Of a stretch of DNA of 64,000 nt, positions 1 through 43,104 are shown piece by piece. Numbering within the stretch: the first letter of the stretch is position 1; each line of letters starts with the position of its first letter. Source of the DNA: a candidate division FCPU426 bacterium (GTDB lineage: Bacteria; Oederibacteriota; Muellerivitia; Muellerivitales; Muellerivitaceae); contig JAHFCG010000001.1 of assembly GCA_023249615.1 (NCBI GenBank), positions 2,257 to 66,256 of the forward strand, written 5' to 3'. The notes under the pieces were generated by a model that was not told where the DNA came from, did no database searches, and saw only the letters and a program-made list of their open reading frames with translations. A program made the position numbers and the translations under genes.

Positions 1-1661
1 TACACCACGGTGGTTCCTGGCGACCCCACCGCAAAATCATCAAAAAAGTTTTGAGAATAGGACACGGTCGCGATGGGAGTGGGGCTGGAGGCCGCCAAGA
101 CATTGCTATAAACGAGGTAATCCACCGGCGACCCGTAAAAACCCGAACCAGCCCCGGACCAAAAAACATGAATCTGGTTGTTGGTCCCAGTCAGAGGGGT
201 TGCCAAAACCGTCGCCACGGGGGTTGGGGCCAAATTTAAATAGGAGGGTGTGGGGGCTTTCCCAATATTTCCGCCCAGATTCAGAAAATCATAAGGTTCC
301 ACCCAATAGCTCCACCCGTGGGCGTTTGAATTTGTCGAATCGACGGCGGCTAGGGTAGGGACAACGGAAGGAACAATTGGAATAATCGTGAAAGGAGTGG
401 GGGTAATGGTGGGGGTTGGACTGCCGGTGAAAGTAGGGGTTCCCGGATAACTCAAGGCCGGCGGGGCCGGGATGCCATTGAGGCTTTTATAAATCCTGTA
501 GCCGTTCAACCCATAGGTCCCGGGATAACCCTGATTCCAAATCACGGTTACGCCCTGTGTAGGGTTGGGAACCACGGTAATGGGGCTGGAGACCGAGGAT
601 TTTGAAAGACTTTCCGAAATACCGCTTGAGCTGGTGTTTCCGTTCGGGCTTTGCGCGATTACGGAGTAGGTTACAGCGGTGGAATTCGAAAAAGGAATAG
701 AGGAATCATCATAAACATAGGTCGGCGTTGCACCGGCAACCGGGATGCTGGTAAGGGTAACCGCGCCCGACAAAACCTGAAATGCCGTTACCCCTTCCGA
801 AACCACGGGGCCGTTCCACATTAAACGGATTCCATAGGTTGGCACGGCCGTGGCCAGAACCATCGCCGAAAGCAACGGCTTGGCGGGAGCCAGCCCTCCA
901 TTTGGAAAAACAGGACCAGTGGCGGTAACGGGCATGGGGCTGGTCACGCCGTTGCTATCCACCGCGTTAACCACATAAAAGGCCCCGGAAGGACCCAGGG
1001 AAACAAATGAGGAATCGGTGAAGGTGGCGCCGAAAACCGTGGCGACCGGTGAAACCATTCCCACCGCCGTATAGGCAAAGGTCGCCTGAATATTGGGAGT
1101 GGTATTGGGCGTCGGGGTATTCGTGGCCCAGGTTCCCGTAGCCGTCGGGGTTGTCGTAAAAACAAAGGCTGACACTTGATAAAAACTGACGGGAAAGGAC
1201 GACAGCGGCGCCCCCCACGAAAGGTCAAGAGCGTTTGAATGGATGGTTTGAATGTTCAAGGGCAGGATAACGTTCGGCGCCGAAAATGGAAAACCAGTGG
1301 TTGAGGAGGGCAAGCCCCTGCCGTTTTGATCCAAGCCCGAAACCTGGTATAGATAGCTTCGTCCGTTGGTCACCTGAAAATCCTGAAAAACAGGTGTTGG
1401 CGCCAGAACCGTGGCAATGGGAACTGGAGTCGGTGTGGGCGTAAGGATTCCGGTGGGTGTGGGTGTCGGTGTGCTGGTTAAATCCTGAAGAATCCGGACG
1501 ATGGAATAGGCGAAGACAGTTGGAACTGGGGAAAGATCTGAATCCCATTGTAAGGTTACGGCCCCATTGCCCCCGGAAGAAGTCAGACCGGCCGGAGGTG
1601 CGGGTTGAGCCAAGGAATTTGAGGCGGACAGCGCCAGCAACCCCATGCTCATCAACCCCAT
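1..1661 (-). CDS. Partial secreted protein with repeated Fn3-like modules joined by Thr/Pro-rich linkers. The N-terminal signal peptide lies at the high-coordinate end and the C-terminus runs off the window start.
   Basis: Manual reverse-complement translation gives one open frame from about 1661 (ATG at 1659-1661; possible TTG at 1689-1691 preceded by TAA) to position 1 with no stops seen. It begins MGLMSMGLLALSASNSLAQ (signal-peptide-like) and contains TPTPTPTG / PTPTITPTP linkers. The ORF track only shows fragments in other frames because the stop lies outside the window. Confidence 0.5.
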   Translation of the reverse strand, partial: MGLMSMGLLALSASNSLAQPAPPAGLTSSGGNGAVTLQWDSDLSPVPTVFAYSIVRILQDLTSTPTPTPTGILTPTPTPVPIATVLAPTPVFQDFQVTNGRSYLYQVSGLDQNGRGLPSSTTGFPFSAPNVILPLNIQTIHSNALDLSWGAPLSSFPVSFYQVSAFVFTTTPTATGTWATNTPTPNTTPNIQATFAYTAVGMVSPVATVFGATFTDSSFVSLGPSGAFYVVNAVDSNGVTSPMPVTATGPVFPNGGLAPAKPLLSAMVLATAVPTYGIRLMWNGPVVSEGVTAFQVLSGAVTLTSIPVAGATPTYVYDDSSIPFSNSTAVTYSVIAQSPNGNTSSSGISESLSKSSVSSPITVVPNPTQGVTVIWNQGYPGTYGLNGYRIYKSLNGIPAPPALSYPGTPTFTGSPTPTITPTPFTIIPIVPSVVPTLAAVDSTNSNAHGWSYWVEPYDFLNLGGNIGKAPTPSYLNLAPTPVATVLATPLTGTNNQIHVFWSGAGSGFYGSPVDYLVYSNVLAASSPTPIATVSYSQNFFDDFAVGSPGTTVV

Positions 1662-1742
1662 GAATAAAATTTTAGGTTTGTTTCTAGTCAATTACGATTC
1701 CCTTCGAATAAAAACACCACTTGTTTTTCATAACCTTTAAAT

Positions 1743-1790
1743 GCCCCTGCCGAAGTCAACCGTTGTAGGGGCAAAGCATGCCTTGCCCCT
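1743..1790. repeat. REP-like palindromic unit of the same family (aggggcaaaGCATGCCttgcccct)
   Basis: Shares the AGGGGC...GCATGCC...GCCCCT core with the unit at 20897-20919. Confidence 0.45.
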
Positions 1791-1882
1791 AGGAAACCTT
1801 ACGACTGCATCTGGCTTCGCCAGACAGGCGCTCTGATGACAGCCCTAAAATAATCAGTTCTTCGTGCCCTCGTGGTTCAAAA

Positions 1883-4800
1883 TCAGAATCTCGCCTCCAC
1901 TGAAATAGTTCCCTGCCAAAGCGTGTAATCAAAAGTATGGTTTTTCTTGGTTTCGTCCGTCGGGTCATACGTCGGGGAAAGCTCATAGGTCGTGTTGGTA
2001 AAATACTCATTGGCGAGTCCAATGCCGACCTTCAGGTTTTTCAGGGCGTTATAGGTGAGATCGATTGTACCACGGTACTTTTGCGTCTTGATCTGGGTGT
2101 AGACGCTGTTGGAATCATTTTCAATGAACTCCATCGAAAAGGTCGACCTAAGTTCGATGGCATCCTGGAGCTTCAACTTCCATTTTGTGAAGGGAATGTG
2201 AATCTCAAGGTTAGGCGCGAATTTTTGGGTGTACTCGATATAACCCAGGTCATCGTGTGGAAGGGTTTCCGTCTGCCGCGTAAGGGTATGGCCCGTGGTT
2301 CTTTGCAGGTGGATATTCCCCTGGGCCTTCGCGTTGATGTCATAAGGGAAGGTAAAGGAATAAAGGTCGGTATAGGACTGCGTGTCGATGATCGGCGGAT
2401 TCGAACTGTCGTATTGGTTGTTTTCGGTCCGGGTATATTGAAACTGGGCGCTGTTCAAGTTGAATTTGATGAAAGGGACCGTGAATATCCGCTTGGTGTA
2501 ATTGGTGGTCAACCCAAGGGTCCTCCCGTCCTGTTTGATGGGATTGGCGCCCCTGGACAGTACGCTCTCCTGCTGGTTCCAGGCTCCGGTCGGCTTGAAT
2601 TCCCAAACATCAAAAAGCCTGAAACTTCCGTTCACCTGTTCAGAGTCGGACTTGTTGCCGGTAAGGGCGAATTTGGAGATTTTTGACCAGGTCGTGTATT
2701 TATCCTCAAAGGTCAAAGCCTCGGTAACCGGCACGGAACCGAAATTGGGGATGGTTTCCGTAAGGTTTTCGGTCCAACCGCCGTAAATCGTGACCCCTAT
2801 TTGCTGTAGAAGCGGAAACCAAATACCCGGGGAAAGATTCACCGAAAGGTTTTGGGAATTGGCGTTGGTGAACCTGGTCCCGTCGGGGAAGGAAACAAAG
2901 TCATATTGATTGCTCCCCGAATAATCCGCCTGGGGGGTTATTCCCGGAATACCCCTGAAAACCATGCCGATCTTGGGCTTGTACCCCTGTTGAAAGGGAA
3001 CAAAGTCGGGAACGGGTGTTCCCTGCACGCCCGGGCTGTTGGTGTTACCCATCGCGTCGATGAGTGAAAGGGAGTATCCGGGGGTAAACACGAGATTCTT
3101 GACCAGCTCGGTCGTGTTGGTCCAGCTATAGTTTTGAAGACGGGTCGTTCGGTCATAGTTGGCAAGTGCCAGGGCCGGGGGGCTGGGGGCGGAAAGGAAT
3201 TCCTGCCGGTCATGGGTCAGGGTAAAGGTCTGGTTAAACTGGTTTGTCCCTATGTTGAGGAAAAAGAGTTTCAACGGCGCGTCGTAGGTACTGTTCAGGT
3301 TTAAAACTTCCTGCCCCTTTCTCGTGTCGCCCTGAACACCCGGCTGGGTTTTATAATCGTCCAAATACTTGTCGGTTTCATAGTTGGTACTCCCCGAAAC
3401 CCGGACGTTGGTCAGGCGCCCAAAACTGGGGCCAAGATCCTTGGTGTACCCGATGCTTCCGGTGGCGTTGTCCACTCTGGTATCGGGAAGGGCTAGGTAA
3501 TAGGGGTTTTGCTTCAAAGCCTCCTCGGTGGTCGTGTCCTGCTGGGTTACGTGAAAATCCGTGGACAAAGGCTGGCCGAAAAGTTTCACCGCGTTGGAGG
3601 AATAGTCGGCGCCCAGCTGCCGTGAATGCTGGAAATGGGTTGAGGTTTGATCCATCTGGGTAAACCCGGAATCCACCTCCCTGTACCGGGTATTGACCGT
3701 GGCGAAGTTGTCTCCCAGGTTAAAGGCGGCATTGACGCGCCGGGCAAGACCGGTTCGGCCAGCCGGACTGACTGTTCTCAGGTTGTTGATCCACAATTCC
3801 CCGGATTGGGCGGAAGGAGCGTTTGGCGAGACAACCCCAAAACTGATCTGGGAGGACCGATTGAGGAAAGGCTTCCCAACCTTAAGGCGGTTCCCCTTGG
3901 ACCCATCCAGGGGAATAACCAGCGTGTTCCAGGTGGAAAGATATTTATCAACCAATTGGATGTTATATTGGTAGAAGTTTTTCTGGTCATTTCCCAGACG
4001 GATAAAAAGTATTTCCCCCGGTTGGTAGGACTTTATTTGTAAATCAAGCCGAAGTTCCTGGAAATCCGTAAAATCAAGTCCCTGGCCGTAAAGACGGGTG
4101 GCGTAATAAATGGGTTTACCGTTGATATTGTTGGCCGGTTCAAAATCCGCCGAGGACAGGTTGTAGGTTATTTTGAGGGACTTTTCCCTGTTCAATATCG
4201 CCGTTTGATCCTGGCCTGTGGCAATCGTCAGGAACCGCAATATACCCTGGTAGCGGTCGGGTTCCTGTTCATGGCTGATGGAGCTGACATCGAATTTACC
4301 GGTATTCACCGTGACGCTTTGATTCGCGTTGGCGTCAGGGTCCACTTCCAACTGCCAAAGGTTTCTTGAAAAACCGATATTCTCAATCCAGAAACCTCCA
4401 GCCACTTCCGCCGGGGTCGTTCCGGTTGTCCAAACCCGGACGGCTTTAACTATTTGGGGATTAGGCGCCCCCACCTGGTGGAAGAAATAGGAAATTCCAT
4501 CCGATGTAAAACTCAACGCGTCCGGCGCGGTGAAATTGATCGGGATTTTGACCTGCTTCCAGGTTTTATACGGCCAATTGACCCTGACTCCATATTCAAA
4601 ATAGGAATTGGCCGTGTCCAGCACCCCGTTTCCGTTCATGTCCTCCGTGATATAGGTCGTATTGGAGCTGAGGTTATTGCTGACCCCTTCCTGGGAAACC
4701 TCCCCTTGATAACCAAGAAACCCCCCCGTGGCCGGGTCAAATTGGGCGCCCGATCCGGGGCTTGAGTTATTCCAGGGGGTTCCAAGCGCGTAAAAGGTTG

Positions 4801-7800
4801 GAATCCCATAACCGGGATTGGAAAGACTCGGGCTTCCCTGATTCGGATCGTGGTCAAGAATGGGCGCGTTCGAGTTGGAATCCTCGTTGATAATCCCAAA
4901 GTCAAACATGACCCATTTATCGATTCCGTCGTTGCAAATCCAGGTTTGAAAATAACGCGTATTGGACAAATCCGTTCCCGTGGCGGTTAAAACCTGCCTT
5001 ACCCCGGCCCAGTTCTGGCTGCTCAAGTGGGAGTAGGGAAATTGTAAAACGCTGACGACATCCTTTCCGTTTTGGGAAGAGGCCCAGGTATGTCCCCCAT
5101 AACCCGGGACACTGGTGTAATCCAGGCCGCCGGTTCCGTTTTGGGTCCCAATCTGCTGGAAATCCATTTGCGTCGCGGGAGCGCTATCATTGTAAAACCT
5201 GACCCTGTTATTGGTGAGGGTTTGGGATCCGTTGGGGGAAAGGCCGGGCAAAAAAGACGGAACGGCGAGTGGCGGGGAGGAAACCAGCCAATTGGTCGGG
5301 TTCATGGCGGGGCTGGTGGAATTATCTATTCCCTCCATGTTATCGATCATGGCCACCCCGCTTTCACCCTCGGCGTCGAAGGTGTTGGGGCTGAAATAAC
5401 TTTGAGCCACCTCACCCGACAATTTGATGTTCAAGGGCGGTTTCCAGTTTTCAAGCCCGGGGATAATTCCCGTTATGGATTGGAGGTCCTCCGGACTTAT
5501 GTCGTATTTGGCGTCCGCGTCCACGACGGCAAGGGAGTTCGGCGTTGACCCGATCTGGGGAACCTCATTGGGTTGTTGGGTGGTGGTGTAAAGGAAGGTG
5601 GAGCCAAGGAAGAAATGGTCCGTGAGGTCATATTCAGCCCTTGCCCCCAAAATATTGTTCTGGCCGAAGGAACCGAAAGGAGCGTACTCATAGGTCACCA
5701 CCACCTGGCTGTCCGGCCGCAAAAGGCTCTTATCCTGGAAATCCAGGAAGCCGGAGTTGTAATCAAAGAAATAATCGGCGTCCCTTTTCAGGCGGTGGCC
5801 GTCCAGGTAAACCGCCTCGCTTCCCCGGATGATGTTGAAGCGGTCGAGCCGGTAAAAATCCAGTTTGGTTTTATATTCCACGTGGATGCGCTTGGCGCTG
5901 GCGGGAGGGGAAGTTTGGCTGTAAACATCCCCCGGACCTGTTCCGGCGGAAGCGTCGATATTCGCGAAGGGCCTTTCCGGAAAATAAGGCGGAGCCGCGA
6001 AGGTCACGCTGGTATTGGTGACCGTTAAAAGATTCAGGTCCTGGTTGACCTGAAAGGCCCAGGGACCCGCGCCGCCGGTTTGAAGGGTGTTGTTGTTCCC
6101 CTGGTCAATGATTTGAAACAGGAATTCCGGGTCCTGCTGGGGCGGGACAATTTTATCCCGGCCCAGGTCAAAGTAATTCAAGAGGTAAAGCGGGCTCACG
6201 ACGGTTGAATTTTTATTGTCCTTGATTAAATAGGCCCGTCCCACATTGGTTACCAGTCCATTGGGATCAACCTGAAGGGTGTCCGGATTCGTCAGATCAA
6301 TTTGACCGCTCGGGTCATAACCGATGGAATTGTTGTTCCGGTCAATAAAGGCCACGGCGATCCGCGAGTTGAGGCTGAGGGCCCGGTTGAAGGTGATCAC
6401 CCCCGTGGAGTAATCGATGGTGTAATCCTTCCCCGGAAGCCAATGCTCGAAAAAACCCCGGAAAATTTTTGGATTGCTTTGATCCGGGAAAATCCCGTTG
6501 GCCGGATCCACCCAAATTTCCTCGCTGTTGCTCTGCGGCAGGGCGTTATTGACGACCTGACTGCCGATGGTGACGGGGCTGGAGGCCCGGGTAATCAAAA
6601 AATACCGGAAACGCATGTATTCAATGTCCTGGATGTCCCTTTTCACCTGGACATAGTTCCCCTTGAAGACCTTGGTTTCGGAAATTCCCTTGGTCTGGGC
6701 GAAAAAGGAGGAAAAGCGGAACCTGTCAAACTTCAATTTCGCCTGGAGGCCGAATAATTTTTTGCTGAAACCGGCGAACTCGGTATTCGGCAGGTAAAGA
6801 TCCAGATCGCCGAAAGCCACTTCCTGGATGGGGCTGTCCTCGTTCCCGTGGTAAACGATGGAAATATTTTGCTTGGTCTGGTCCACTCCCCCCGTCCCGG
6901 TGCCGTTGTTTCGATTCACGTCGCTGTAATCCACGTTGACGTCGACGTTCTTCCCCACCTTCCCCTGCAGGTTCACCACCAATTCCTGGTTGACCTGGGT
7001 ATTGTTGTTGTCGGCGGAAATGGCGGTAATTTTGGGATCACGGTTGAAATGCTGGAAGCTGAAAACCGCCTCAATTTTTTTGTACCCCTGGATCGAAAGC
7101 TGGGTATCCGCCGGCAATTGCAAATTGATGATCTTTTGCTGGGGAACGTCCAAGACCTTCTCTTCTTCCGGGGGCAGGGTGGCCTTGGGTTTGAGGGCTT
7201 CCGCCTTTTCCTCCTCCGTCAGGGGAATTTCCAGTCCCTGGGGAGTCACGGTATTTTCCTCGGAATAGGCGCCGACCGTTCCCTGCGAATCCACGGCGGC
7301 CACCACGTAAAAATAATCCTCACCGTTTTTGGGGGCCGAAAGACTGTTTTGGGCGCCGTCCAGGAAATAAGGGGCCGGCAGGGGTTTTAAATTGACCAAC
7401 TTGTATCCGATTCCAGGAACCGTCGAACGGTAGACGTTATAAGACACCACGTGGGAGGGCACCGGAGCGGAATCCCAGGAAAGATAAACGCCATCCTTGA
7501 GGGTCAGTATTTTGATGCCCGTGGGGACCGGAGGAGGGCCAAAGGAAGTCACGGGAGCCGAGGTGGCCCCGGGAGTGGGGGTGTTCCCAATGTAATCAAT
7601 CCCGTCCAGGACCTGGATTTCTTCCTGGGGGCTTAAGTTCAAATCCTTGGCGGGAGTGGTAATGCTTTTTTGCGACACAGGCCCTGGCGTGGGGGTTTGC
7701 GCGAACGCTGAATTCGACGCTGTTAGGAAAACTATCCCCAAAATGACCAGAAGGATCTTGGTTGGCCCCCCCAAAGAACCTGCCGGGCGGCAGGTTTTCT

Positions 7801-7879
7801 CCTGTCGATGGAACAGGGGAAAAGATTTGACGCCGGAGGGAGATGTAGTAATGGTTGTGGCCTTCCTGGTAAACATCAA
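1883..7879 (-). CDS. Giant (~1998 aa) secreted outer-membrane protein. It has an N-terminal signal peptide plus an Fn3-like module and a C-terminal beta-barrel signature (...EARF terminal Phe). It is possibly a SprA/Sov-like very large beta-barrel.
   Basis: Long ORF with an N-terminal hydrophobic stretch KILLVILGIVFLTASNSAFAQ and an N/T/S/G/Y/Q-rich composition typical of OM barrels, ending in a C-terminal Phe. The SprA assignment is inference only. The true start is probably downstream of the annotated M (possible TTG). Confidence 0.75.
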   Translation of the reverse strand: MMFTRKATTITTSPSGVKSFPLFHRQEKTCRPAGSLGGPTKILLVILGIVFLTASNSAFAQTPTPGPVSQKSITTPAKDLNLSPQEEIQVLDGIDYIGNTPTPGATSAPVTSFGPPPVPTGIKILTLKDGVYLSWDSAPVPSHVVSYNVYRSTVPGIGYKLVNLKPLPAPYFLDGAQNSLSAPKNGEDYFYVVAAVDSQGTVGAYSEENTVTPQGLEIPLTEEEKAEALKPKATLPPEEEKVLDVPQQKIINLQLPADTQLSIQGYKKIEAVFSFQHFNRDPKITAISADNNNTQVNQELVVNLQGKVGKNVDVNVDYSDVNRNNGTGTGGVDQTKQNISIVYHGNEDSPIQEVAFGDLDLYLPNTEFAGFSKKLFGLQAKLKFDRFRFSSFFAQTKGISETKVFKGNYVQVKRDIQDIEYMRFRYFLITRASSPVTIGSQVVNNALPQSNSEEIWVDPANGIFPDQSNPKIFRGFFEHWLPGKDYTIDYSTGVITFNRALSLNSRIAVAFIDRNNNSIGYDPSGQIDLTNPDTLQVDPNGLVTNVGRAYLIKDNKNSTVVSPLYLLNYFDLGRDKIVPPQQDPEFLFQIIDQGNNNTLQTGGAGPWAFQVNQDLNLLTVTNTSVTFAAPPYFPERPFANIDASAGTGPGDVYSQTSPPASAKRIHVEYKTKLDFYRLDRFNIIRGSEAVYLDGHRLKRDADYFFDYNSGFLDFQDKSLLRPDSQVVVTYEYAPFGSFGQNNILGARAEYDLTDHFFLGSTFLYTTTQQPNEVPQIGSTPNSLAVVDADAKYDISPEDLQSITGIIPGLENWKPPLNIKLSGEVAQSYFSPNTFDAEGESGVAMIDNMEGIDNSTSPAMNPTNWLVSSPPLAVPSFLPGLSPNGSQTLTNNRVRFYNDSAPATQMDFQQIGTQNGTGGLDYTSVPGYGGHTWASSQNGKDVVSVLQFPYSHLSSQNWAGVRQVLTATGTDLSNTRYFQTWICNDGIDKWVMFDFGIINEDSNSNAPILDHDPNQGSPSLSNPGYGIPTFYALGTPWNNSSPGSGAQFDPATGGFLGYQGEVSQEGVSNNLSSNTTYITEDMNGNGVLDTANSYFEYGVRVNWPYKTWKQVKIPINFTAPDALSFTSDGISYFFHQVGAPNPQIVKAVRVWTTGTTPAEVAGGFWIENIGFSRNLWQLEVDPDANANQSVTVNTGKFDVSSISHEQEPDRYQGILRFLTIATGQDQTAILNREKSLKITYNLSSADFEPANNINGKPIYYATRLYGQGLDFTDFQELRLDLQIKSYQPGEILFIRLGNDQKNFYQYNIQLVDKYLSTWNTLVIPLDGSKGNRLKVGKPFLNRSSQISFGVVSPNAPSAQSGELWINNLRTVSPAGRTGLARRVNAAFNLGDNFATVNTRYREVDSGFTQMDQTSTHFQHSRQLGADYSSNAVKLFGQPLSTDFHVTQQDTTTEEALKQNPYYLALPDTRVDNATGSIGYTKDLGPSFGRLTNVRVSGSTNYETDKYLDDYKTQPGVQGDTRKGQEVLNLNSTYDAPLKLFFLNIGTNQFNQTFTLTHDRQEFLSAPSPPALALANYDRTTRLQNYSWTNTTELVKNLVFTPGYSLSLIDAMGNTNSPGVQGTPVPDFVPFQQGYKPKIGMVFRGIPGITPQADYSGSNQYDFVSFPDGTRFTNANSQNLSVNLSPGIWFPLLQQIGVTIYGGWTENLTETIPNFGSVPVTEALTFEDKYTTWSKISKFALTGNKSDSEQVNGSFRLFDVWEFKPTGAWNQQESVLSRGANPIKQDGRTLGLTTNYTKRIFTVPFIKFNLNSAQFQYTRTENNQYDSSNPPIIDTQSYTDLYSFTFPYDINAKAQGNIHLQRTTGHTLTRQTETLPHDDLGYIEYTQKFAPNLEIHIPFTKWKLKLQDAIELRSTFSMEFIENDSNSVYTQIKTQKYRGTIDLTYNALKNLKVGIGLANEYFTNTTYELSPTYDPTDETKKNHTFDYTLWQGTISVEARF

Positions 7880-7970
7880 ATTCCGCCTCGTTTAATACTG
7901 TACGGGGAATCGTCCCCGAAAGGAACTTTTCCCAAATTTTAATATAAAATTAAAAGCACCCTCATCCCAA

Positions 7971-8116
7971 CCCTCTCCCCTCAAGGGAGAAGGGGGAAAA
8001 ATGAAACCTAACCCTGCCTTACTGCCTGGTTTTAAAATCCAAGCCGGTTTAAAAAAAATTTAAAACCCTGACAACAACCCCCTCTCCATCAAGGGGAGAG
8101 GGCGGCGCGAAGCGCC
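7971..8116. repeat. Two related hairpins (tctccc-ctcaa-gggaga and ccctctcc-atcaagg-ggagaggg) plus a ggcgcGAAgcgcc hairpin
   Basis: Motif CCCCTCAAGGG(G), shared with 10284-10352. Confidence 0.5.
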
Positions 8117-8143: not shown

Positions 8144-8893
8144 TCAATCCAACCCCAGGGCTTTTTTCAAATCATCCAAACGTTCCCGGCTTACCGGCAG
8201 GCGTGTTTTGGCCGTGTCGGATAAAACCGCCATGTATTTCCTGTCCCCCTCATGGTCCAACTCCTTCAGGTAATCCAGGTTGATGATGGCGCTCCGGTGG
8301 ATCCTCAGGAATTTTTCGGGATCCAACCGCTGGGCAAGGGCGTCCAGCCGGTCATCCGCCAGAAGCTCCTGGCCTTCCACCAGCAAAAGGGCGTAATGGT
8401 CCTTGGCCACAATGGCGGAAACCTGGGTTGGGTTAAACACCCGGTACTTGGCCCCGCACTTGATGGCCATCCGCCTTTTCGCGTTTCCTTCCTCCATTTT
8501 TTTGAAGAATTCCCTGCGGTCGGTCTGGGTTTTAGGATTTTTTCTTTTCCGGATTCTTTCAATGGTTTCACCCAGTCTTTCGGGTACCACGGGTTTGACA
8601 AGATAATCCACGGCCGAAAGTTCAAATGCCTTCAGCGCGTGTTCGCTGTAGGCCGTGACGAAAACCACCGCTGGTCCTTCCCCGCCCCAGGCCTCGGCAA
8701 CTTCCAGGCCGTTGAGCTCCGGCATCTCGATATCCAAAAAGACCAGATCCGGCTGAAGTGTTTGCGCGACCTGAAGAGCCTCCAAACCATTGGAGGCCTC
8801 GCCGACAACCTTCAGGTCCGAAAAAACCGCCAGCATCCTGGCAAGCCGGGAACGGGCGGGTGCTTCATCATCCACAATCAGGGCCTTAATCAT
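8144..8893 (-). CDS. Response regulator with an N-terminal receiver domain and a C-terminal LytTR DNA-binding domain
   Basis: MIKALIVDDE...DLVFLDIEMPELNGLEV receiver motifs; the C-terminal half is LytTR-like; it overlaps the upstream kinase by 4 nt. Confidence 0.85.
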   Translation of the reverse strand: MIKALIVDDEAPARSRLARMLAVFSDLKVVGEASNGLEALQVAQTLQPDLVFLDIEMPELNGLEVAEAWGGEGPAVVFVTAYSEHALKAFELSAVDYLVKPVVPERLGETIERIRKRKNPKTQTDRREFFKKMEEGNAKRRMAIKCGAKYRVFNPTQVSAIVAKDHYALLLVEGQELLADDRLDALAQRLDPEKFLRIHRSAIINLDYLKELDHEGDRKYMAVLSDTAKTRLPVSRERLDDLKKALGLD

Positions 8894-10236
8894 TTCTCCT
8901 CCTTAACCGAGGGATCGGTGGTTAAAAGCGGCAGGGTCATCAAAACCCTGGTTCCCCCGCCTTCACGACGGGCAATCTCAAGACGGCCTTCTTTTCCAAA
9001 ACTTAAATCAAGGCGTTTTCGGCAATTCTCAAGGGCGGTTCCAGAGCCTGAGTAATTGGAGTTGCCAAAACCAACCCCGTCATCCTCCACCCATAATTCC
9101 AGATTTTCCTTTTTCAATTCCGCCCCCACGGTAAGGTTGCCGCCTGATGCCCGCGAGGAAAGCCCGTGCTTTACCGCGTTTTCCACCAGGGGCTGAAGCA
9201 ACAGAACGGGAACGAATATTTTTCCCGCGTCCAATCCCCTTGCCGGTTTAATCTTCGCCTTCAGGCGGGACCCAAAGCGGACCTGCTCAATTTCAAGGTA
9301 ATCCTTGCAAAAACCCAGTTCCTTCGCAAGAGGATGATAGGATTTTTCACTGGACGCCAACACCCCCTGGTAAAGCGCCGACAGCCTCACCACCACCTTT
9401 TCCGCCTTGGCCGGATCATCGTGGATAAGGGAAGCCACGGTGTTCAGGGTATTGAAAAGAAAGTGGGGATTCATTTGATCCTTTAATTTTGTCAGCAGAG
9501 CCTGGAGCCTTTCCTTTTCCAGTTCTTCCGTTCGCAACTTGCTGGATCTCGCGGCGTCCTTCAGGTCCTGCCAGGACATGAAAAGAAAACAAAGGAGGAG
9601 AAGGGTCCAAACCCAAAAAACCTCCGTCCCGTAATACTGCCAGTGGAACTCGACGGGGATAGGATCCCCGGCGTAATACCAGTTGATTAACGCCAGCTTG
9701 ATATGAAAATCCAGGTACAATCCGGCCGGGGCCACAAAAGCCAATAAAAGCAAAAACCATCCGGTGCCGTGCCGGGGAATGTTTCTTTGGGCGTGAAGCG
9801 CCCAAAATTTTTCCACGGTCAAAAAGACCTTTGTCATCGCCATGCCGAACAATCCGACTAGGGAGGCCTCGAAAAAACTCCAGCCCCAACGGAAAAGAAT
9901 CGAGGAAACCGTGCGGTTTCCTAAAAGGAAACTGACCAAAAGGGTCAAAATCGGGTTCCAAAAAAGGAACAGTTTGAGAAAGGAAACGGCGAACCGGTCC
10001 TCAAAATCCAGGGAAAAAAAAATTTTCCAGTTCCGGCTCATCTTTTCGTTCCTTTGTGTTTCGTTTCCCGGGGCCTCGATCGTTTCCCCGGGGGGACTTT
10101 TTTGAAAAAGCCTGATTAACCCCCGCGAAATGATAGCAACACCCGGAAAAATACCTAGGTTGATTTTTTCATCGGTCATAACCCCTTGTTTCCCTCCGAG
10201 TAAAAAAGACCCGTCGGGGAAAGGCGCCCCGCCCAT
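8890..10236 (-). CDS. LytS/YehU-type sensor histidine kinase (multi-TM N-terminal domain, His_kinase and HATPase_c)
   Basis: Contains ...MNPHFLFNTLNTVASLI (His_kinase H-box) and ...GLSSRASGGNLTVGAEL...DDGVGF (ATPase). The probable real start is at MSRNWKIFF (about 10041), because the upstream extension translates intergenic hairpins. Confidence 0.8.
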   Translation of the reverse strand: MGGAPFPDGSFLLGGKQGVMTDEKINLGIFPGVAIISRGLIRLFQKSPPGETIEAPGNETQRNEKMSRNWKIFFSLDFEDRFAVSFLKLFLFWNPILTLLVSFLLGNRTVSSILFRWGWSFFEASLVGLFGMAMTKVFLTVEKFWALHAQRNIPRHGTGWFLLLLAFVAPAGLYLDFHIKLALINWYYAGDPIPVEFHWQYYGTEVFWVWTLLLLCFLFMSWQDLKDAARSSKLRTEELEKERLQALLTKLKDQMNPHFLFNTLNTVASLIHDDPAKAEKVVVRLSALYQGVLASSEKSYHPLAKELGFCKDYLEIEQVRFGSRLKAKIKPARGLDAGKIFVPVLLLQPLVENAVKHGLSSRASGGNLTVGAELKKENLELWVEDDGVGFGNSNYSGSGTALENCRKRLDLSFGKEGRLEIARREGGGTRVLMTLPLLTTDPSVKEEK

Positions 10237-10442: not shown

Positions 10443-11615
10443 TTGGAATTGAAGACCATCTACCGGTACGTTTTAATCGAAATGATGCCGGCTTTTTTAC
10501 TTGGCGTAACCCTTTTAACTTCCCTTTTTATGATCAACAAGGTCGCTCTCCTCCTGGATTTGCTATTGAATAAAAATGTCAATTTGGGGGATACACTCCT
10601 GCTTTTCCTCAGCCTCCTTCCCATGATTCTTTCCCTCACCATTCCCATGTCCATGATGGTGGCAACCTTGCTGGCGTTCGGCCGATTAAGTTCCGACATG
10701 GAGGTGACGGCTTTCAAGACCAGCGGCGTCCACCTTTTCCGCCTGATTGGTCCGGTTTTACTTTTAAGTTTTCTCCTGACCCTTTTCATGATTTTTTTCA
10801 ATGACACGGTATTGCCCGCGGCCAATTCCACCTTCAAGAAGGTTCATTACCGTATCCTTCGTGATCAGGCCCATATCGCCATCAAGGAAAGGGTGTTCAT
10901 CGACAAATTTGAGGGATACCAGTTTTACATTGACCGGCAGGACAGGGAGGGCTTGTTTTCGGACGTGAAAATGTTTTTTCGATGGTCACCCCAGGCCTCG
11001 ATTCAGACGGCGCTTTCCAAAACCGGAAGACTCGAAAACGACCCGTCCACGATGCAGCTTTTTTTCCACATGAACAACGGAACCATCAACTGGGACAACC
11101 AAAACTTCCACACCTACAACCGCCTCTACTTTGAACGATTCACCACCAGGTTGAACCTGGAAAACCAGCTGGCCGGTATGACGGACCAAAAAAAGAATTT
11201 TGAGGAAATGACACTGAAGGAGCTCTCGGGGGAAATAAAAACCGCGCCGGAGCCTTCCCGAAGGTCCTCTTTGAAAAATGAATTTCACAAACGTCTTTCA
11301 CTTCCCGTCGCCTGTCTGGCCTTGACCTGGTTCTGCGCTCCCCTGGGTCTTTGGCTTCGGTTCAAGGGGTTTATCGGGTTCGTAATAAGTCTCGCGATGA
11401 TTTTCATTTACTATCTCATGTTCGACCTTGGACAGGTTTTATGCGAGCGGGGCCTGGTCCAGCCCCTCGTGGGTTTCTGGTGGGCGAACGGAATATTGAT
11501 TCTTGGGGGAACCCTTGTTTATTACCTCCTGATTACCGAGGGAGCGGCGTTTAAAGGCGGAAACGGTTTGACCTCCCCGGGTCTTCCTCGAAAAACAGCG
11601 GGACAGGCGTCATGA
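10443..11615 (+). CDS. lptF: LPS export ABC permease LptF (YjgP/YjgQ family)
   Basis: YjgP/YjgQ-like membrane topology with a large periplasmic loop; followed by a paralog overlapping by 4 nt. Confidence 0.7.
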   Translation: MELKTIYRYVLIEMMPAFLLGVTLLTSLFMINKVALLLDLLLNKNVNLGDTLLLFLSLLPMILSLTIPMSMMVATLLAFGRLSSDMEVTAFKTSGVHLFRLIGPVLLLSFLLTLFMIFFNDTVLPAANSTFKKVHYRILRDQAHIAIKERVFIDKFEGYQFYIDRQDREGLFSDVKMFFRWSPQASIQTALSKTGRLENDPSTMQLFFHMNNGTINWDNQNFHTYNRLYFERFTTRLNLENQLAGMTDQKKNFEEMTLKELSGEIKTAPEPSRRSSLKNEFHKRLSLPVACLALTWFCAPLGLWLRFKGFIGFVISLAMIFIYYLMFDLGQVLCERGLVQPLVGFWWANGILILGGTLVYYLLITEGAAFKGGNGLTSPGLPRKTAGQAS

Positions 11616-12700
11616 AAATACTCACCCGGTACATTCTTTGGGAATTCCTGAAACCCTTCATTTTGTCCCTTGCCGCTTTCAGTGTCATCATCATGATTAT
11701 CCAGGTGTTCAACGACATTCGAATCATCATGGAATTCAAACCGGGGTTCTTTCTGACCCTGAAATATTTCTTCCTCCAGATACCCTTTTTATTGATTCAG
11801 ATCGTCCCGATCGCGGTTTTAATGGCCGTCCTTTTTTCCCTAAGCCACCTGTCTAAAAGCAGCGAATTGATCGCCATGAGGGCCGGCGGGGTTAGTATTT
11901 TCCTTGTCGCGTTTCCACTTTTTGTTTCCGGTTTGGTGATTTGCTGCCTGAGCATTCTCGTGAACGAAACCATCGTCCCCAAAACCACCCGAATGGTCCG
12001 CCATGCCAAGGTGGTTGAAATTCAGAAACAACCCGAAGAAACCTCGAGCCGCAGCCGCCAAAATATTTCGATGATCGGGGCCGGTAACAGGATTTACCAT
12101 ATCGGTTCCTTCGACGGAAACACCAACACCATGACCGATATCCTGATTTTGGAGTTTGACAGGGACACCCATTTAAAATCCCGTGTGGACGCCAAAAGCG
12201 CCATATACGAGGGGGAGAGATGGGTTTTCAACGGCGGTTATCTCCGGTTATTCGGCGGGGATGACGCGGAGGTTTCGGCTCGCGCTTTTGATCATGAGCC
12301 CGTTCCCCTGGAGGAAAAACCCCAGGATTTTCTCAAGGAACAAAAGGAACCCCAGGAATTGAGCCTGATGGAACTGGTCGGTTATGTCCGGCAGTTGAAA
12401 TTAAACGGGTCGGATTACCACAAGGAACTGGTGGAATTGCATACCAAGATCGCCTTTCCTTTCGGCTGCATCATTTTAGCGATCTTGGGAATTCCGTGGG
12501 GTTGGACCATGGGCAAATACAGCGGAGTGGTTTTCAGCTTTGGAGTTTGTCTCTTGGTGGCTTTCTTTTATATCGGCGGGATGCAAATAGGCCACACACT
12601 GGGGGACTCGGGGGTCCTTTCCCCCGCCATTGCCATGTGGTTTATGAATTTCTTTTTTGGGGTTCTGGGTCCGTTGCTGTTGGTACGCAACAACCGCTAA
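11612..12700 (+). CDS. lptG: LPS export ABC permease LptG (YjgP/YjgQ family)
   Basis: Paralogous permease immediately downstream of lptF, which is the typical lptFG pairing. Confidence 0.7.
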   Translation: MKILTRYILWEFLKPFILSLAAFSVIIMIIQVFNDIRIIMEFKPGFFLTLKYFFLQIPFLLIQIVPIAVLMAVLFSLSHLSKSSELIAMRAGGVSIFLVAFPLFVSGLVICCLSILVNETIVPKTTRMVRHAKVVEIQKQPEETSSRSRQNISMIGAGNRIYHIGSFDGNTNTMTDILILEFDRDTHLKSRVDAKSAIYEGERWVFNGGYLRLFGGDDAEVSARAFDHEPVPLEEKPQDFLKEQKEPQELSLMELVGYVRQLKLNGSDYHKELVELHTKIAFPFGCIILAILGIPWGWTMGKYSGVVFSFGVCLLVAFFYIGGMQIGHTLGDSGVLSPAIAMWFMNFFFGVLGPLLLVRNNR

Positions 12701-14381: not shown

Positions 14382-15716
14382 TTACGATTCCTTTTTAATA
14401 GAGTCCATATCCACGATGGCGCAGGTGATCTCCGCTTCCACGGCGGTCTGCCCGTCAACAATGGCCTTACCCGCGATTTTTCCTATTTTGGACCGGACAA
14501 ACAAAACCTCTATCTCAAACCTGATCTGGTCCCCCGGCATGATGGGTTTACGAAACCGGGCGTTATCCACTCCGGCCAAATACAAAATCTTTCCCTTGTT
14601 CGCGGGTTCACAAAGAAAGGCGATTCCCCCCGCCTGGGCCATGGCTTCAATCACCAGGACCCCCGGCATGATGGGATGCCCCGGAAAGTGCCCCTGAAAA
14701 AAGGGTTCGTTGATGGTGACGTTCTTGACGGCCACCACCTTTTTGTTGGGTTCCAGCTCCAAAATCCTGTCGACCAAAAGAAAAGGGTACCGGTGGGGCA
14801 GTATTTTTTGGATTTCCAAGATGTCTAACATGGGTCTCTCTCCCGATTCTTTTTTTGTTTTTTCCGCGCCATTTCCAAATTTTTCCAGAATGGCTTTCGC
14901 CAGTTCCACGTGATATCGATGCCCCGCCTTTCGGACGGTTACCTTCGCCCAAAGAGGGCGGTTCAAAAGTTTCAGATCCCCCAGTAAATCCAGGGTCTTG
15001 TGGCGGACAATTTCATCCTCATGGCGGAGGGGGCCGTTCACAATCCCCTTTTTTCCCATCACGACCGCGCAGGAAAAATCCCCGCCCTTGATGAGTCCCT
15101 GACGGCGCAATTCCTCGATTTCTTCCTCGAAACAAAAGGTTCGGGCCTGGGCCAACTCCTTTTCAAAACTTCCATCTTTTAATTCAAAAACCCGGTTCTG
15201 GTTTTCCAACCCGGGATAGGGAAAGGAAGTCGTCACATCAAGAAACAAACCCTCCGCCGGCTCGACCTTTAGTGAAACATCTTTGAAATTCACCTCAAAA
15301 GAATCCGTAACCTTCAGGGGTGTGGCGGGTGTTTCCTGATCCAAAATACCGGCTTTGTTAAAATATCCGCAAAAAGGAACAGCGCTTCCATCCAAAATCG
15401 GCATTTCCTCGGCGTCCATCTCCACTTTTAGGTTATCCAAACCAAAACCGTGAACGGTCGCTAAAAAATGTTCCACGGTATGAATACTTGCCTTCTTTTC
15501 CCCTGTCAGCGTGGTTCCCCGGGCCGTGTTGGTGACCGAAAAGGGGGAAAGGGGAATTTTAGCCCCTAAATCGCTCCGGATAAAAAGGATTCCGGAACCC
15601 GGCGGCAGGGGGGAAACCGTGACCTTGCATTTTTTCCCGGTGTGCAACCCTATTCCTTCGAATGAAAAAGGGCTTTTTATTGTTTTTTGGGTCCTAATTC
15701 CCTTTTCACTTTTCAT
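14382..15716 (-). CDS. lpxC/fabZ: Bifunctional LpxC deacetylase / FabZ dehydratase fusion
   Basis: The N-terminal half is LpxC-like ([17 protein letters not shown]...HTVEHFLA) and the C-terminal half is a FabZ hot-dog ([14 protein letters not shown]...[13 protein letters not shown]). Confidence 0.85.
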
Positions 15717-17307: not shown

Positions 17308-17549
17308 GACTTCTCCTTAAATTGGAGCCTCTGGGACAAACCCGGCGGCTTATTTTTTTTACCCGGCTCCGCCAATACTTTGCCGGGCTTACCCCACCCT
17401 TATGGCGGTTGACAACGCGTCTTAATCAAAAACTTAATCCGCGGATTAACCGCGAAAGAAATCCCGACGAAGGCGAAATTTTACACGATTCGTTACGGGA
17501 GAACAACGGAAGGTTTAAAATCGCGAGGGAAAAACCTGTTTTCCTGGCT

Positions 17550-17930
17550 TTAACCGCCCGCCAATTTCAGGAATTTTTCCAAAACTTCCCGGAAATGCGG
17601 GTGCATCGTGAGAAAGCGGAGTCCGTATTCATACCGGCCCAAATTCGGGAAATTTTGATGATTAGCACGGACAACCTCGGCCTCTGCCCTGACCATTTCC
17701 CGGAATTCCTCAAGCGGAAACTCAACCTCAATGGCTGATTGAACTTCCAGAAAATTTTTGGTGGTTAAAAAAAAACCGGTCCGGCTGATGTTGGACATGG
17801 TGTTGTTTCCATTGTGAAGCTCCGGCTCTGGGGACTCCCCAACCGGGGATTTGAGAAGGCGAAAACGCATGTGAATGCGGACAGGAAACCTTTGGGCGAT
17901 TCGGTTATCCGCTGGAAAAGGTCCGGCCAT
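17550..17930 (-). CDS. PilZ-domain protein (partly degenerate c-di-GMP motifs)
   Basis: QRFPVRIHMRF and NISRTGFFL sit at the PilZ RxxxR / DxSxxG positions; the protein ends ...LAGG. Confidence 0.6.
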   Translation of the reverse strand: MAGPFPADNRIAQRFPVRIHMRFRLLKSPVGESPEPELHNGNNTMSNISRTGFFLTTKNFLEVQSAIEVEFPLEEFREMVRAEAEVVRANHQNFPNLGRYEYGLRFLTMHPHFREVLEKFLKLAGG

Positions 17931-20029: not shown

Positions 20030-20061
20030 TAAAAAATTGGCTTGCCAACCGAAGCTGGCAA
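20030..20061 (-). terminator. Intrinsic terminator downstream of ssrA
   Basis: Minus-strand hairpin TTGCCAGCTTCGGTTGGCAA followed by a T-run; two further GC hairpins lie between it and the tmRNA 3' CCA. Confidence 0.4.
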
Positions 20062-20140
20062 AATCAACGCGCGTCCTCCTTCGCCAAGGCTTCGGAGGAC
20101 AACCTTCGCTAACTTCAACAACGTTAAAGGTAGCGAAGGT

Positions 20141-20483
20141 TGGTGGAGGTGGTGGGAATCGAACCCACGTCCTGAAAAACATCCGTAATGGGCACTACGT
20201 GCGTAGCTCCGGAATGAGTCTCGCTCTCCGCTCGCTCCCGAGCGGCCGGCGAAGAGCCAGTCCCTTTGGTTCTCGTCCGCTCATCGGTGGAACAACCCTG
20301 TTGCGGACCAGCCTACTACTTACGTCCCGTTCCCTTAATAGGCATCAAGGACAAGACGCTAACCGCTTTAAGCGGCCAGAGCTAACTGATTGTCGGCAGT
20401 TAAACCGTTGCCATGTTTGACGAGCGATGGCGCCTCGACACGCACCCAAAAGTTCAGCTTCCCAGTCGAAACCGGTCACCCCC
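20141..20483 (-). ncRNA. ssrA: tmRNA (SsrA), one-piece
   Basis: The minus-strand 5' end is GGGGGTGACCGGTTTCGACTGGG and the 3' end is GGTTCGATTCCCACCACCTCCACCA (tRNA-Ala-like T-arm/acceptor + CCA). The internal tag ORF GCC GAC AAT CAG TTA GCT CTG GCC GCT TAA encodes ADNQLALAA* (20368-20397). Confidence 0.9.
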
Positions 20484-36038: not shown

Positions 36039-36653
36039 TTACTTGACCTTTATCGCCTGAAAAATGGCCCTTAACGAAACCGCGTCCGGTACCAGCAGAA
36101 AGTAACCCCCAATAACCTCATGAGCGTCAATGAATTTGGTTTCTATGCAAATTACCTTGGTGTCGTCATCCATCCCCTGGGTTAGGGAGGTCAATAGGGC
36201 CCCCGCCATGTCAAAAACCAGGGTTGGAACTGAAATAAGAAGAAGCATTCCGAGAAATTCATTCAAGGCGCTTAAATAGGCGCCGGTCAAAATATTCCCA
36301 GCCTCTTTAATGGCCGAATGACCCATCTCGGTAAGAATCTTGCTGGTTCCGACTTCCTGTTTAAGAAGCATATCCGCCAGGTGAAGGGCCGAATCCCGGG
36401 GAAAAAGCAAAACGATTTTTCCGGTTGCGTCGCCAAGGATGGCCAAGGTCAACCCGGCTACCAACGTGTTGGGGTCGCCCACAAGACGTGGAACCTCCGA
36501 AAGGGAAAGAATATTGGCCTTGGGAACAGTAATATGGATTTTTTTTCCGAGAAGCTGGGACAAAGCCGTGGCGCCATGGCCGGCGCCGATGTTGCCCACT
36601 TCCTTCAGGGCATCCAATTGGCTGGGCGTCAACTGGTCGAGATTAAGAAGCAT
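36039..36653 (-). CDS. cheC: CheC/CheX-family CheY-P phosphatase
   Basis: LDALKEVGNIGAGHGATALSQLLGKKI... duplicated CheC repeats. Confidence 0.8.
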   Translation of the reverse strand: MLLNLDQLTPSQLDALKEVGNIGAGHGATALSQLLGKKIHITVPKANILSLSEVPRLVGDPNTLVAGLTLAILGDATGKIVLLFPRDSALHLADMLLKQEVGTSKILTEMGHSAIKEAGNILTGAYLSALNEFLGMLLLISVPTLVFDMAGALLTSLTQGMDDDTKVICIETKFIDAHEVIGGYFLLVPDAVSLRAIFQAIKVK

Positions 36654-36677
36654 TCGAAAAATCCTTTTTCCAAAATC

Positions 36678-38894: not shown

Positions 38895-38953
38895 TTTAAC
38901 CTAATTTGGGGAAAATTGATTTGGTTGGATGTTTAAAGCGGTGTTTGTGATTA

Positions 38954-40048
38954 CTATCGGCGGTTTAAAAGCGCGTTTATTTCCTGGGCCATTTGGGACA
39001 GGGGTACCTGCCGGTCCACCATTCCCGAATCCACCGCGGCCTTGGGCATCCCGTAAACCACGCAGCTGCCGGCGTCCTGGGCGAACGTTTTTCCCCCCAC
39101 GGCATGAATATCCTTCAAACCCGCGGTTCCGTCCCTGCCCATTCCGGTCAGGATAACTCCCATGCATTGCTTGCCCGCTGTTTTGGCTACAGAGCTCATC
39201 ATGATATCGGCGGAGGGTTTTACGCCCAGCCTTGGGGGGTGATCATTAAAACCAAACTTGTAATGCCCGGCACCTCCCTCAAGAACCAGGTGAAGGCCCG
39301 CCGGGGCGACATAAGCGTGGCCCCCCATGAGATACTCTCCATCCTCCGCCTCTGAAACCTCCAGGCGGCTGACCTCACCCAGGCGCCTGGCCAGGGCTTT
39401 CGTGAAACCCACCGAAATATGCTGAACAATCACGAAAGCGACGCTCGAACTCCGGTTTAAATTGGAAAACAATTCATTGAGCGCCCTGGGCCCTCCGGTT
39501 GAGGAGGCCACCGCCACGATAAAAGTGGCCGGTTTATCCCTTTCAACCGTTTCTGGTTCGGCAGGCTTGACATTTTTTTTTACCGTGGATTCGGCGGAGA
39601 CTCCTTCCAATTCCTTGTTTCGGCGGGGCTTGCAAAGGGAGGCCATTTTTATTTTCTCGACCAATTCTCCCTGGATTGCCTTGGCGTTTTCCAAAACGCG
39701 CCCTGCCGGTTTACCGATACAATCGATGGCTCCCAGTTCGAGGGCCCTGATGGTTGTTTCGGTTCCCTTGCCTGTATGGCTGGAGATCATGACAACGGGA
39801 GTTGGCGAATCCTTCATTATTTTTTCGAGGGCGGCCAACCCGTCCATCTTGGGCATTTCCACGTCGAGCGTGATGACGTCCGGTTTCAACTTTTTGGCTT
39901 TTTCGACCGCCTCGAGCCCGTTCTGGGCGGTGTCCAAGACGGTGATTTCCCCATTGGTGGTATTCAGGATTTCAGACAGGATTTTTCTCATGAAAAAAGA
40001 ATCGTCGACGATAAGAACACGGATGGTTTTGGATTTTTCAGCCGTCAT
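38954..40048 (-). CDS. cheB: Chemotaxis methylesterase CheB (REC + CheB_methylest)
   Basis: IRVLIVDDSFFMRK receiver followed by a methylesterase domain (GASTGG...). Confidence 0.9.
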   Translation of the reverse strand: MTAEKSKTIRVLIVDDSFFMRKILSEILNTTNGEITVLDTAQNGLEAVEKAKKLKPDVITLDVEMPKMDGLAALEKIMKDSPTPVVMISSHTGKGTETTIRALELGAIDCIGKPAGRVLENAKAIQGELVEKIKMASLCKPRRNKELEGVSAESTVKKNVKPAEPETVERDKPATFIVAVASSTGGPRALNELFSNLNRSSSVAFVIVQHISVGFTKALARRLGEVSRLEVSEAEDGEYLMGGHAYVAPAGLHLVLEGGAGHYKFGFNDHPPRLGVKPSADIMMSSVAKTAGKQCMGVILTGMGRDGTAGLKDIHAVGGKTFAQDAGSCVVYGMPKAAVDSGMVDRQVPLSQMAQEINALLNRR

Positions 40049-40104
40049 GGAGGTTCCCGGTCAAATTACGGTTTGTCTTAAAAAGCTCAAAACGACTTTT
40101 GCCG

Positions 40105-40184: not shown

Positions 40185-40207
40185 GCGGTTGCTTTTTTTC
40201 TTAACTT

Positions 40208-41105: not shown

Positions 41106-41117
41106 CTCTTGGGTCGC

Positions 41118-43097: not shown

Positions 43098-43104
43098 GGA
43101 ATTC

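Follow-up and report, generated by a model that had tools for sequence, protein, structure and literature searches.

Type IX secretion moves folded proteins out of the cell through SprA/Sov, a giant outer-membrane beta-barrel of 36 strands that handles cargo tagged with a C-terminal sorting domain (CTD). In this secretion system (T9SS) the type-A CTD is removed by the PorU sortase and the cargo becomes attached to anionic lipopolysaccharide (LPS). Here we describe a SprA/Sov-family gene and its downstream neighbour in a candidate division FCPU426 bacterium (assembly GCA_023249615.1, contig JAHFCG010000001.1, positions 2,257 to 66,256; this whole stretch of 64,000 nucleotides is referred to as the window). 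The gene spans 1883..7879 on the minus strand (1998 codons plus the stop) and was assigned to the family on the basis of its open reading frame (ORF), the TIGR04189 model, a family profile, and Foldseek comparisons.

Giant size, a signal peptide, a C-terminal Phe, and CTD-tagged neighbours are features that the protein has in common with SprA of Flavobacterium johnsoniae (6H3I, 6H3J, 8GL6, and 8GL8) and Sov of Porphyromonas gingivalis. It differs from SprA in its length (1998 aa, ~400 residues less than the 2403 aa of SprA), in having an extra N-terminal Fn3 domain, and in the setting of its gene, which adjoins the putative cargo gene and the LPS export genes lptF and lptG in a host outside the Fibrobacteres-Chlorobi-Bacteroidetes (FCB) superphylum; no T9SS partner (PorV, PPI/Plug, SprE, and GldLM/KN) turned up in the scans of the window. 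The domain that ends the downstream protein resembles T9SS type-A CTDs (TIGR04183/PF18962; PorZ 5M11, PorU, gingipains, RemA), being an Ig-like domain of ~90 aa that forms the very C-terminal end of large multi-domain secreted proteins, but in the close FCPU426 clade it is missed by Pfam and is equally close to the Ig-like domains of FlgD. The PorV/PorQ family (NF033709, PF19572) has members encoded no more than 10 kb away from the SprA-like gene in Elusimicrobiota, Firestonebacteria, and a second FCPU426-labelled lineage, and SprA of Bacteroidota likewise has PorV as its partner. LptD is also a large outer-membrane barrel, and the SprA-like gene adjoins LPS export genes; however, the structural match to LptD was only ~1e-3 to 1e-4, as compared to 1e-36 for SprA, with no sequence-family match. 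The FCPU426 protein is thus a divergent member of the SprA/Sov family, distinguished by its N-terminal Fn3 domain, its smaller size, and a neighbouring, presumably dedicated cargo composed of modules of the same type; we count it within the known family because it passes the curated SprA model and because NCBI already names T9SS proteins in Elusimicrobiota.

Sequence and Domain Layout of the Giant Protein

The ORF at 1883..7879 (minus strand) was uninterrupted and its product, which ended in ...ISVEARF* with Phe as the final residue, was identical to a database entry (P0001, 1997 aa). Two likely starts were found, an ATG at 7876 with a GAGG 8 nt upstream, and an in-frame internal TTG at 7774. 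The second start would give a predicted Sec signal peptide (7700..7774, minus strand), consisting of MGGPTKILLVILGIVFLTASNSAFA followed by cleavage before Q, which was read from the sequence; leaders of ~28 aa were present at the N-terminus of the homologues in a 40-homologue alignment. A low-confidence TP-rich linker separated the signal peptide from the N-terminal Fn3 domain (residues ~119-219; 7223..7525, minus strand), which was recognised by AlphaFold2 (AF2), Foldseek, and the profile. The domain was modelled with a predicted local distance difference test score (pLDDT) of 85-94 and resembled the Fn3 domain of chitinase A1 (1k85, TMt 0.81, rmsd 2.3) and the Fn3 domains of titin; the 40-homologue profile also matched Fn3 chains in PDB (3mpc, 4e-6; 1k85, 1.2e-5). 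By analogy with the usual topology of even-stranded barrels, it would be located in the periplasm. The rest of the protein (residues ~245-1998; 1886..7147, minus strand) constituted the SprA-homologous body, as defined by the co-linear profile alignment, strand counts, and Foldseek, with barrel strands at residues ~260-417, 725-830, and 1360-1996 and inserted domains in between. An earlier note on this DNA had described a giant protein of ~2000 aa with a signal peptide, an N-terminal Fn3 module, and a C-terminal Phe, and each of these elements was recovered, with the signal peptide remaining a prediction from sequence.

The NCBIfam model TIGR04189 (T9SS outer membrane translocon Sov/SprA) matched the giant protein in four stretches with E = 8.3e-68 and 228.9 bits, above its curated cut-off of 200 bits. 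A profile built from 40 homologues retrieved F. johnsoniae SprA from PDB (6h3i_A and 6h3j_A; E = 2.9e-41), the matching stretches being co-linear and covering residues 145-336, 396-1404, and 1475-1559 of the 6h3i_A chain. Only the family profile reached SprA, since a single-sequence phmmer search of PDB returned neither SprA nor anything else relevant. The C-terminal third of the protein displayed no significant sequence match to SprA, yet it was SprA-like in the predicted structure. A weak match to OMP_myx_plus (15.5 bits) was also obtained.

Predicted Structure

The giant protein was modelled with AF2 as two overlapping halves (residues 40-1238 and 800-1998) from alignments of 49 sequences. 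The model of residues 800-1998 reached a mean pLDDT of 83.8 and that of residues 40-1238 a pLDDT of 75.7. The last 640 residues formed ~26 antiparallel strands of 10-19 residues each, and the numbers of long strands in the fragment models were about 26, 5, and 11. When compared with PDB by Foldseek, residues 800-1998 gave SprA chains as the leading matches (8gl8_A, 5.3e-36; 8gl6_A, 1.7e-35; 6h3i_A, 1.1e-31; 6h3j_A, 4.4e-31) and the first match other than SprA was MtrB (5.3e-6), with weaker matches to SlpA/SDBC (~1e-5), TonB-dependent receptors (~1e-4), and LptD chains. SprA was again first for residues 40-1238 (8gl6_A, 1.6e-36; 6h3i_A, 1.9e-33), and in these models it led other structural matches by about 30 orders of magnitude. 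The proposal of the earlier note that the protein could be a SprA/Sov-type T9SS translocon barrel, for which a SprA model search and structure prediction had been suggested as checks, was therefore supported by TIGR04189, by the family profile, and by the predicted structures of both halves.

The Downstream Fn3-Repeat Protein and Its C-Terminal Domain

The gene downstream started 190-220 nt after the SprA-like gene, at TTG 1691 or ATG 1661, and left the window at base 3, so that its 5' part (3..1691 or 3..1661, minus strand; ~563 codons) was available from the translation and the Fn3 profile. With the TTG start the product carried a putative signal peptide, MTRNKPKILFMGLMSMGLLALSASNSLA, cleaved before Q, as read from the sequence. 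TP-rich linkers (TSTPTPTPTG, TPTPTPVPI, and PTPTITPTP) were present, in agreement with the earlier description of a secreted Fn3-repeat protein that continues past the window edge. A profile of the N-terminal Fn3 domain of the SprA-like protein recognised ~13 Fn3-like stretches in the downstream protein (E = 2.4e-29) and also matched its orthologue in locus L004 (2.9e-34); when run against 924 ORFs from the 79 loci described below, it retrieved almost exclusively SprA-like proteins (41) and downstream proteins (29). The N-terminal Fn3 domain of the translocon and the repeats of its neighbour are, judged on these sequence matches, one module subtype. With general models the similarity was weaker: the Pfam fn3 family remained below threshold (23.5 vs. 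25 bits), no other Pfam match was obtained, and phmmer against PDB gave a single Fn3-like match (8e-4). The C-terminal sorting domain falls outside the window, past its edge. An ENA assembly contained the same locus (L001; one mismatch in 10,300 nt) and lengthened the downstream product to a minimum of 1431 aa, with ...LDRNAIRPFGASNEQFVNLRFVTTDLGRVNIKVY at the contig end, covering the first 36 residues of the C-terminal domain (E = 2.2e-8). The spacer between the SprA-like and Fn3 genes also contained a near-perfect palindrome of 13+13 nt (TAGGGGCAAGGCA/TGCTTTGCCCCTA; 1766-1791) with no T-run after it.

Each of the 25 downstream-protein orthologues available in full length (878-1635 aa) ended in a conserved domain of ~95 aa that extended up to the last residue, with the pattern ...NIRFVVTxPGNVxIKVYSLxGTFVKELVN...WDAxNMNGxLVASGVYLITTE...KVAVIK. 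The CTD parts of the PorZ and the PorU models each matched 14 out of 14 of these domains, TIGR04183 (T9SS type A sorting domain) matched 12 of the 14 (best E 4e-6), and FlgD Ig-like models matched as well. A profile of the domain retrieved 1395 proteins, many of them with PF13860 or PF18962, and among the retrieved proteins some from TA06, Cloacimonadaceae, Eisenbacteria, and Endomicrobiia bore the name 'T9SS type A sorting domain-containing protein'. Because of the PorZ, PorU, TIGR04183, and FlgD matches and of the proteins retrieved, the Fn3 protein is assigned, at the level of sequence, a sorting domain of the T9SS type-A/FlgD-Ig class; the search for a CTD-type signal proposed in the earlier note thus gave a positive answer in the full-length orthologues.

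A search for further CTD-tagged proteins of the close lineage gave short fragments as its top matches, and the two with long contigs (P0218 and P0209) were frameshifted pieces of the orthologous Fn3 gene, adjoining comF-gap-pgk. Apparent frameshifts split the SprA-like and Fn3/CTD genes in long-read (nanopore-type) assemblies (L080:1044-2288, L081:5473-6949, L016, L023, and L025), and 'CTD-only' database proteins of 100-170 aa are therefore fragments of the Fn3/CTD gene.

Relatives of the Giant Protein

The protein database contained 73 relatives of the giant protein, all of them unnamed or 'hypothetical' except for some distant entries named 'SprA'. When each GTDB species was scanned through a single genome, 78 loci with a SprA-like gene were obtained, and the neighbourhood analysis was carried out on 79 loci (L001-L079). 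Relatives at 41-68% identity were labelled candidate division FCPU426 and came from palsa, bog, and Danish soil metagenome-assembled genomes (MAGs), and those at 25-31% identity belonged to a second FCPU426-labelled lineage, Goldiibacteriota, Firestonebacteria, Elusimicrobia, Sumerlaeota, and Aerophobetes. Doud et al. (2019; PMC7031533) treat the 16S cluster of FCPU426 as equivalent to Goldbacteria and report that its nearest neighbours are Firestonebacteria and Elusimicrobia. A HMMER search with residues 230-1400 retrieved 1361 representatives of 50%-identity clusters at E ≤ 1e-3, of which 271 remained at the stricter E ≤ 1e-30. Phylum representatives matched TIGR04189 with E values from 1e-49 to 1e-78 and scored between 168 and 264 bits, on either side of the 200-bit cut-off; Goldiibacteriota (263.9 bits) and Firestonebacteria (202.7 bits) passed, and the second FCPU426 lineage (189 bits), Sumerlaeota (182 bits), and Elusimicrobiota (168 bits) were just below. 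The family thus lies at the edge of this model, and its proteins have therefore been deposited as 'hypothetical'.

Conserved Gene Neighbourhood

Clustering of the ORFs from all loci revealed a conserved order consisting of lpxD, lpxC/fabZ, lpxA, and lpxI, a divergent lptG-lptF pair, the SprA-like gene, a comF-like gene, gap, pgk, and tpi. The lptFG pair adjoined the SprA-like gene in 61 of the 79 loci, from FCPU426, Goldiibacteriota, Firestonebacteria, and Elusimicrobia, and a comF-like gene followed in 41. This synteny of lptFG and comF-gap-pgk-tpi is unusually deep for proteins that are only 25% identical, and LPS export might conceivably be tied in function to the SprA-like barrel. In 30 loci the Fn3/CTD gene had the SprA-like gene on one side, with which it forms a conserved gene pair, and comF on the other.

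In 42 of the 79 loci, local hidden Markov models (HMMs) detected C-terminal CTDs at no more than 10 kb from the SprA-like gene, and in 18 they detected PorV/PorQ-like proteins at the same distance. The NCBIfam PorV/PorQ family was passed above its 90-bit cut-off in loci L052 (175 bits), L071 (129 bits), L042 (111.8 bits), and L047 (100 bits), of which L042 is FCPU426-labelled (isolate palsa_1178). In other loci TIGR04183 was passed (25.4-29.6 bits) by CTD-tagged proteins that included an M6 metalloprotease, a BamB-like propeller protein, and a beta-helix protein, and a CTD-tagged S8 protease was just below its cut-off (20.9 bits). The CTD protein beside PorV in L052 was considered as a PorU candidate and rejected, the match being confined to the CTD. 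Neither a GldLM/PorLM motor nor a GldKN/PorKN ring was found among the annotated neighbours in the window and in the loci extended by 10 kb on each side, and a profile search with the PorV neighbours gave 174 matches, none of which was attributable to the close FCPU426 clade.

Some additional arrangements were observed around these genes. In the second FCPU426-labelled lineage, fusions of a PorV/PorQ barrel with a C-terminal OmpA-like peptidoglycan-binding domain (L042:549-2237, L043:182-2260, and L047:1617-3668) were encoded ~8 kb upstream of SprA-like genes. Three to four paralogous TonB-dependent receptor genes were arranged in tandem directly downstream of the SprA-like gene in L032 (16142-23208) and L045 (16919-25764), occupying the place that the Fn3/CTD gene has in other loci. 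In one clade (L028:8012-9556, L029, L031, L032, L034, L036, and L045) a PMT_2-type (dolichyl-phosphate-mannose-like) glycosyltransferase gene was placed divergently upstream of the SprA-like gene, and such PMT-type enzymes may be relevant to the glycosylation of surface proteins.

Proposed Function and Alternative Explanations

We consider it probable that the giant protein is a divergent SprA/Sov-family translocon that exports its CTD-tagged, Fn3-repeat neighbour via a type-IX-like route. Sec would export both proteins to the periplasm, as their signal peptides suggest, and the SprA-like protein would then take its place in the outer membrane, forming a SprA-class barrel (~36 strands) capped by inserted domains; homology and fold class were shown by the comparisons above, and closure of the barrel and its strand number are predicted by analogy with the SprA class. 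The neighbour (~1,500 aa, with ~13 Fn3-like modules) would be recognised by its C-terminal sorting domain, passed through the barrel, and displayed on the cell surface or released from it, probably as an adhesin or a surface-coat protein to judge from adjacency and the tag. Expression of the SprA-like and Fn3 genes is probably controlled by the LytS/LytTR two-component pair encoded upstream, as its conserved position suggests.

Several observations weigh against this interpretation. A homologue of PorV, PorU, PorZ, or GldK/L/M/N was found neither in the 64-kb window nor, for the 27 close-clade loci, at up to 10 kb from the SprA-like gene. A catalytic domain of PorU did not appear in any locus examined, the PorU/PorZ matches corresponding to the CTD parts only. 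Pfam returned no family for the giant protein at E ≤ 0.1, and SprA_N (PF14349) was silent; in precomputed annotations this family was present in a few homologues (P0029, P0030, and P0043, as well as some distant members). The structural models are half-length fragments, too short to give barrel closure, strand count, or the lateral gate. As for the cargo, the CTD of the close clade scored 21.8 bits on TIGR04183, just below the cut-off of 23, Pfam Por_Secre_tail did not match the downstream protein, and the CTD profile retrieved FlgD from PDB (3c12; 2e-5) ahead of the PorZ CTD (5m11, residues 712-757; 1.8e-3), so that by sequence the close-clade domain is at least as similar to the Ig-like domain of FlgD. 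In addition, FCPU426 and Goldiibacteriota are placed by the NCBI taxonomy as unplaced candidate phyla outside the FCB group, and published papers, including reviews, confine the T9SS to Bacteroidota or to the FCB superphylum. No paper linking the T9SS to Elusimicrobia, Firestonebacteria, Goldbacteria, or FCPU426 was found in the literature searched; in MAGs of Elusimicrobiota, however, some proteins have already been annotated by the NCBI pipeline as PorV/PorQ or as carrying a 'T9SS type A sorting domain'.

The location of the gene within a deeply conserved housekeeping block, adjacent to lptFG in most loci and in several phyla, together with the lack of motor or sortase genes seen nearby, would fit a barrel that serves outer-membrane or LPS biogenesis, or some other housekeeping role in the envelope, with the Fn3 protein as a mere neighbour. 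We regard this as unlikely: the closest solved relative is the T9SS translocon, by 30 orders of magnitude over LptD among others, the CTD proteins and the PorV/PorQ-like proteins in so many neighbourhoods are hard to explain without secretion, and synteny with housekeeping genes may simply be inherited. Slightly less likely still is that the two genes are functionally unlinked and that the C-terminal domain of the Fn3 protein is a structural or adhesive Ig module of the FlgD type, the protein leaving the cell by another route. The precedence of FlgD over PorZ in the PDB search and the sub-threshold TIGR04183 score of the close clade speak for this possibility, as does the presence of chemotaxis genes in the genome, whereas the domain occupies the extreme C-terminus in every full-length orthologue, with a tail of the K-x-x-x-I/V-K type, and domains of the same class tag proteases and other secreted proteins beside SprA-like genes in related lineages, where they pass TIGR04183; the gene pair is, moreover, kept in 30 loci.

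That the giant protein belongs to another class of large barrels (LptD, TonB-dependent receptor, MtrB, or an S-layer anchor of the SlpA type) is very improbable. The structural matches cited above (MtrB and SlpA/SDBC, TonB-dependent receptors, and LptD at ~3e-4) and the weak OMP_myx_plus score are what could be adduced for it, but these structural matches were 25-30 orders of magnitude weaker than SprA, involved only part of the strands, and had no sequence-family support, and the readings were rejected on these grounds; TIGR04189, the SprA profile match, and the Foldseek results of both halves effectively refute them.

A more far-reaching and clearly more doubtful version of the translocon interpretation is that FCPU426/Goldiibacteriota, Firestonebacteria, and Elusimicrobiota carry a reduced or ancestral type-IX-like module, composed of the SprA-like protein, PorV/PorQ-like proteins, and CTD cargo, without the GldKLMN/PorKLMN motor-ring and PorU; in FCPU426 it would be dedicated to a single Fn3-repeat surface protein, whose modules the N-terminal Fn3 domain of the translocon would recognise in the periplasm. 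If this were true, the T9SS translocon would have originated outside or before the FCB superphylum and the pore could be energised differently. What these phyla share is a conserved chromosomal module with a SprA homologue and a tagged cargo, plus PorV/PorQ in sister lineages. Should the remaining machinery be present, the known range of the T9SS would widen; should it be absent, nature would have provided a minimal translocon, from which the requirements of SprA function could be learned. In an abundant uncultured lineage of peat and soil, the Fn3-repeat cargo is probably one of the major surface proteins.

Upstream Regulators and Intergenic Region

The sensor kinase/LytTR pair that the earlier note had placed directly upstream of the giant gene was confirmed by Pfam. 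The LytTR-type response regulator (8144..8893, minus strand; Response_reg and LytTR) and the LytS/YehU-type sensor histidine kinase (8890..10236, minus strand; His_kinase PF06580 and HATPase_c) are encoded by genes that overlap by 4 nt. Conservation of the pair was limited to the close clade, where the regulator was kept in position between lptF and the SprA-like gene in 24 loci and the kinase in 20.

The intergenic region from the regulator to the SprA-like gene (7941..8102, minus strand) contained a single sigma-70-like promoter match (7970-7941) and two near-identical palindromic hairpins of the CCCTCTCCCC-TCAA-GGGAGAAGGG type, at 7971-7995 and 8078-8102, 108 nt apart. Within the 64-kb window the hairpin motif was restricted to this region (0.06 occurrences expected by chance). 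The hairpins could be a terminator, an element of the repetitive extragenic palindromic (REP) type, or a site for the regulator.

Other Genes in the Window

Pfam scans covered 52 ORFs of the window and detected no T9SS or gliding genes, and searches of the six-frame translations with the local CTD and PorV-like HMMs gave nothing further, which agrees with the earlier observation that no other genes of these systems are visible in the window. The lptF and lptG genes, divergent from the SprA-like gene, were located at 10443..12700 (plus strand), both with the LptF_LptG family. The host is a diderm, as judged from sequence, because genes for the biosynthesis and export of LPS are present in the window. 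Other products recognised along with those of the LPS genes were OmpH, PilZ, a beta-helix protein, enolase, TopA, DprA, a GGDEF protein, BirA, pantothenate kinase, NadC, and ValRS, as well as a complete chemotaxis set (CheA/B/C/D/R/W/Y) with TPR proteins.

The chemotaxis genes formed a cluster at 36042-47980 (CheC/X, CheA, CheB, CheY, CheW, CheD, CheC, CheW, and CheR) interleaved with two large TPR proteins, and after it a secretion ATPase of the T2SSE type fused to TPR repeats (767 aa) was encoded at 49417-51717. Four ORFs had no Pfam match, at 48014-48985 and 48978-49382 on the minus strand (324 and 135 aa) and at 17322-17735 and 20037-20417 on the plus strand (138 and 127 aa); they are located in the interval from the chemotaxis genes to the ATPase gene and in the vicinity of the PilZ gene, and the 324-aa ORF had no NCBIfam match either. 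A TMEM260/PMT-like glycosyltransferase was encoded at 51807-53993, 44 kb from the SprA-like gene. An LpxC-FabZ fusion of 444 aa was encoded at 14385-15716, within the lpxD-lpxC/fabZ-lpxA-lpxI cluster that was kept across the close loci.

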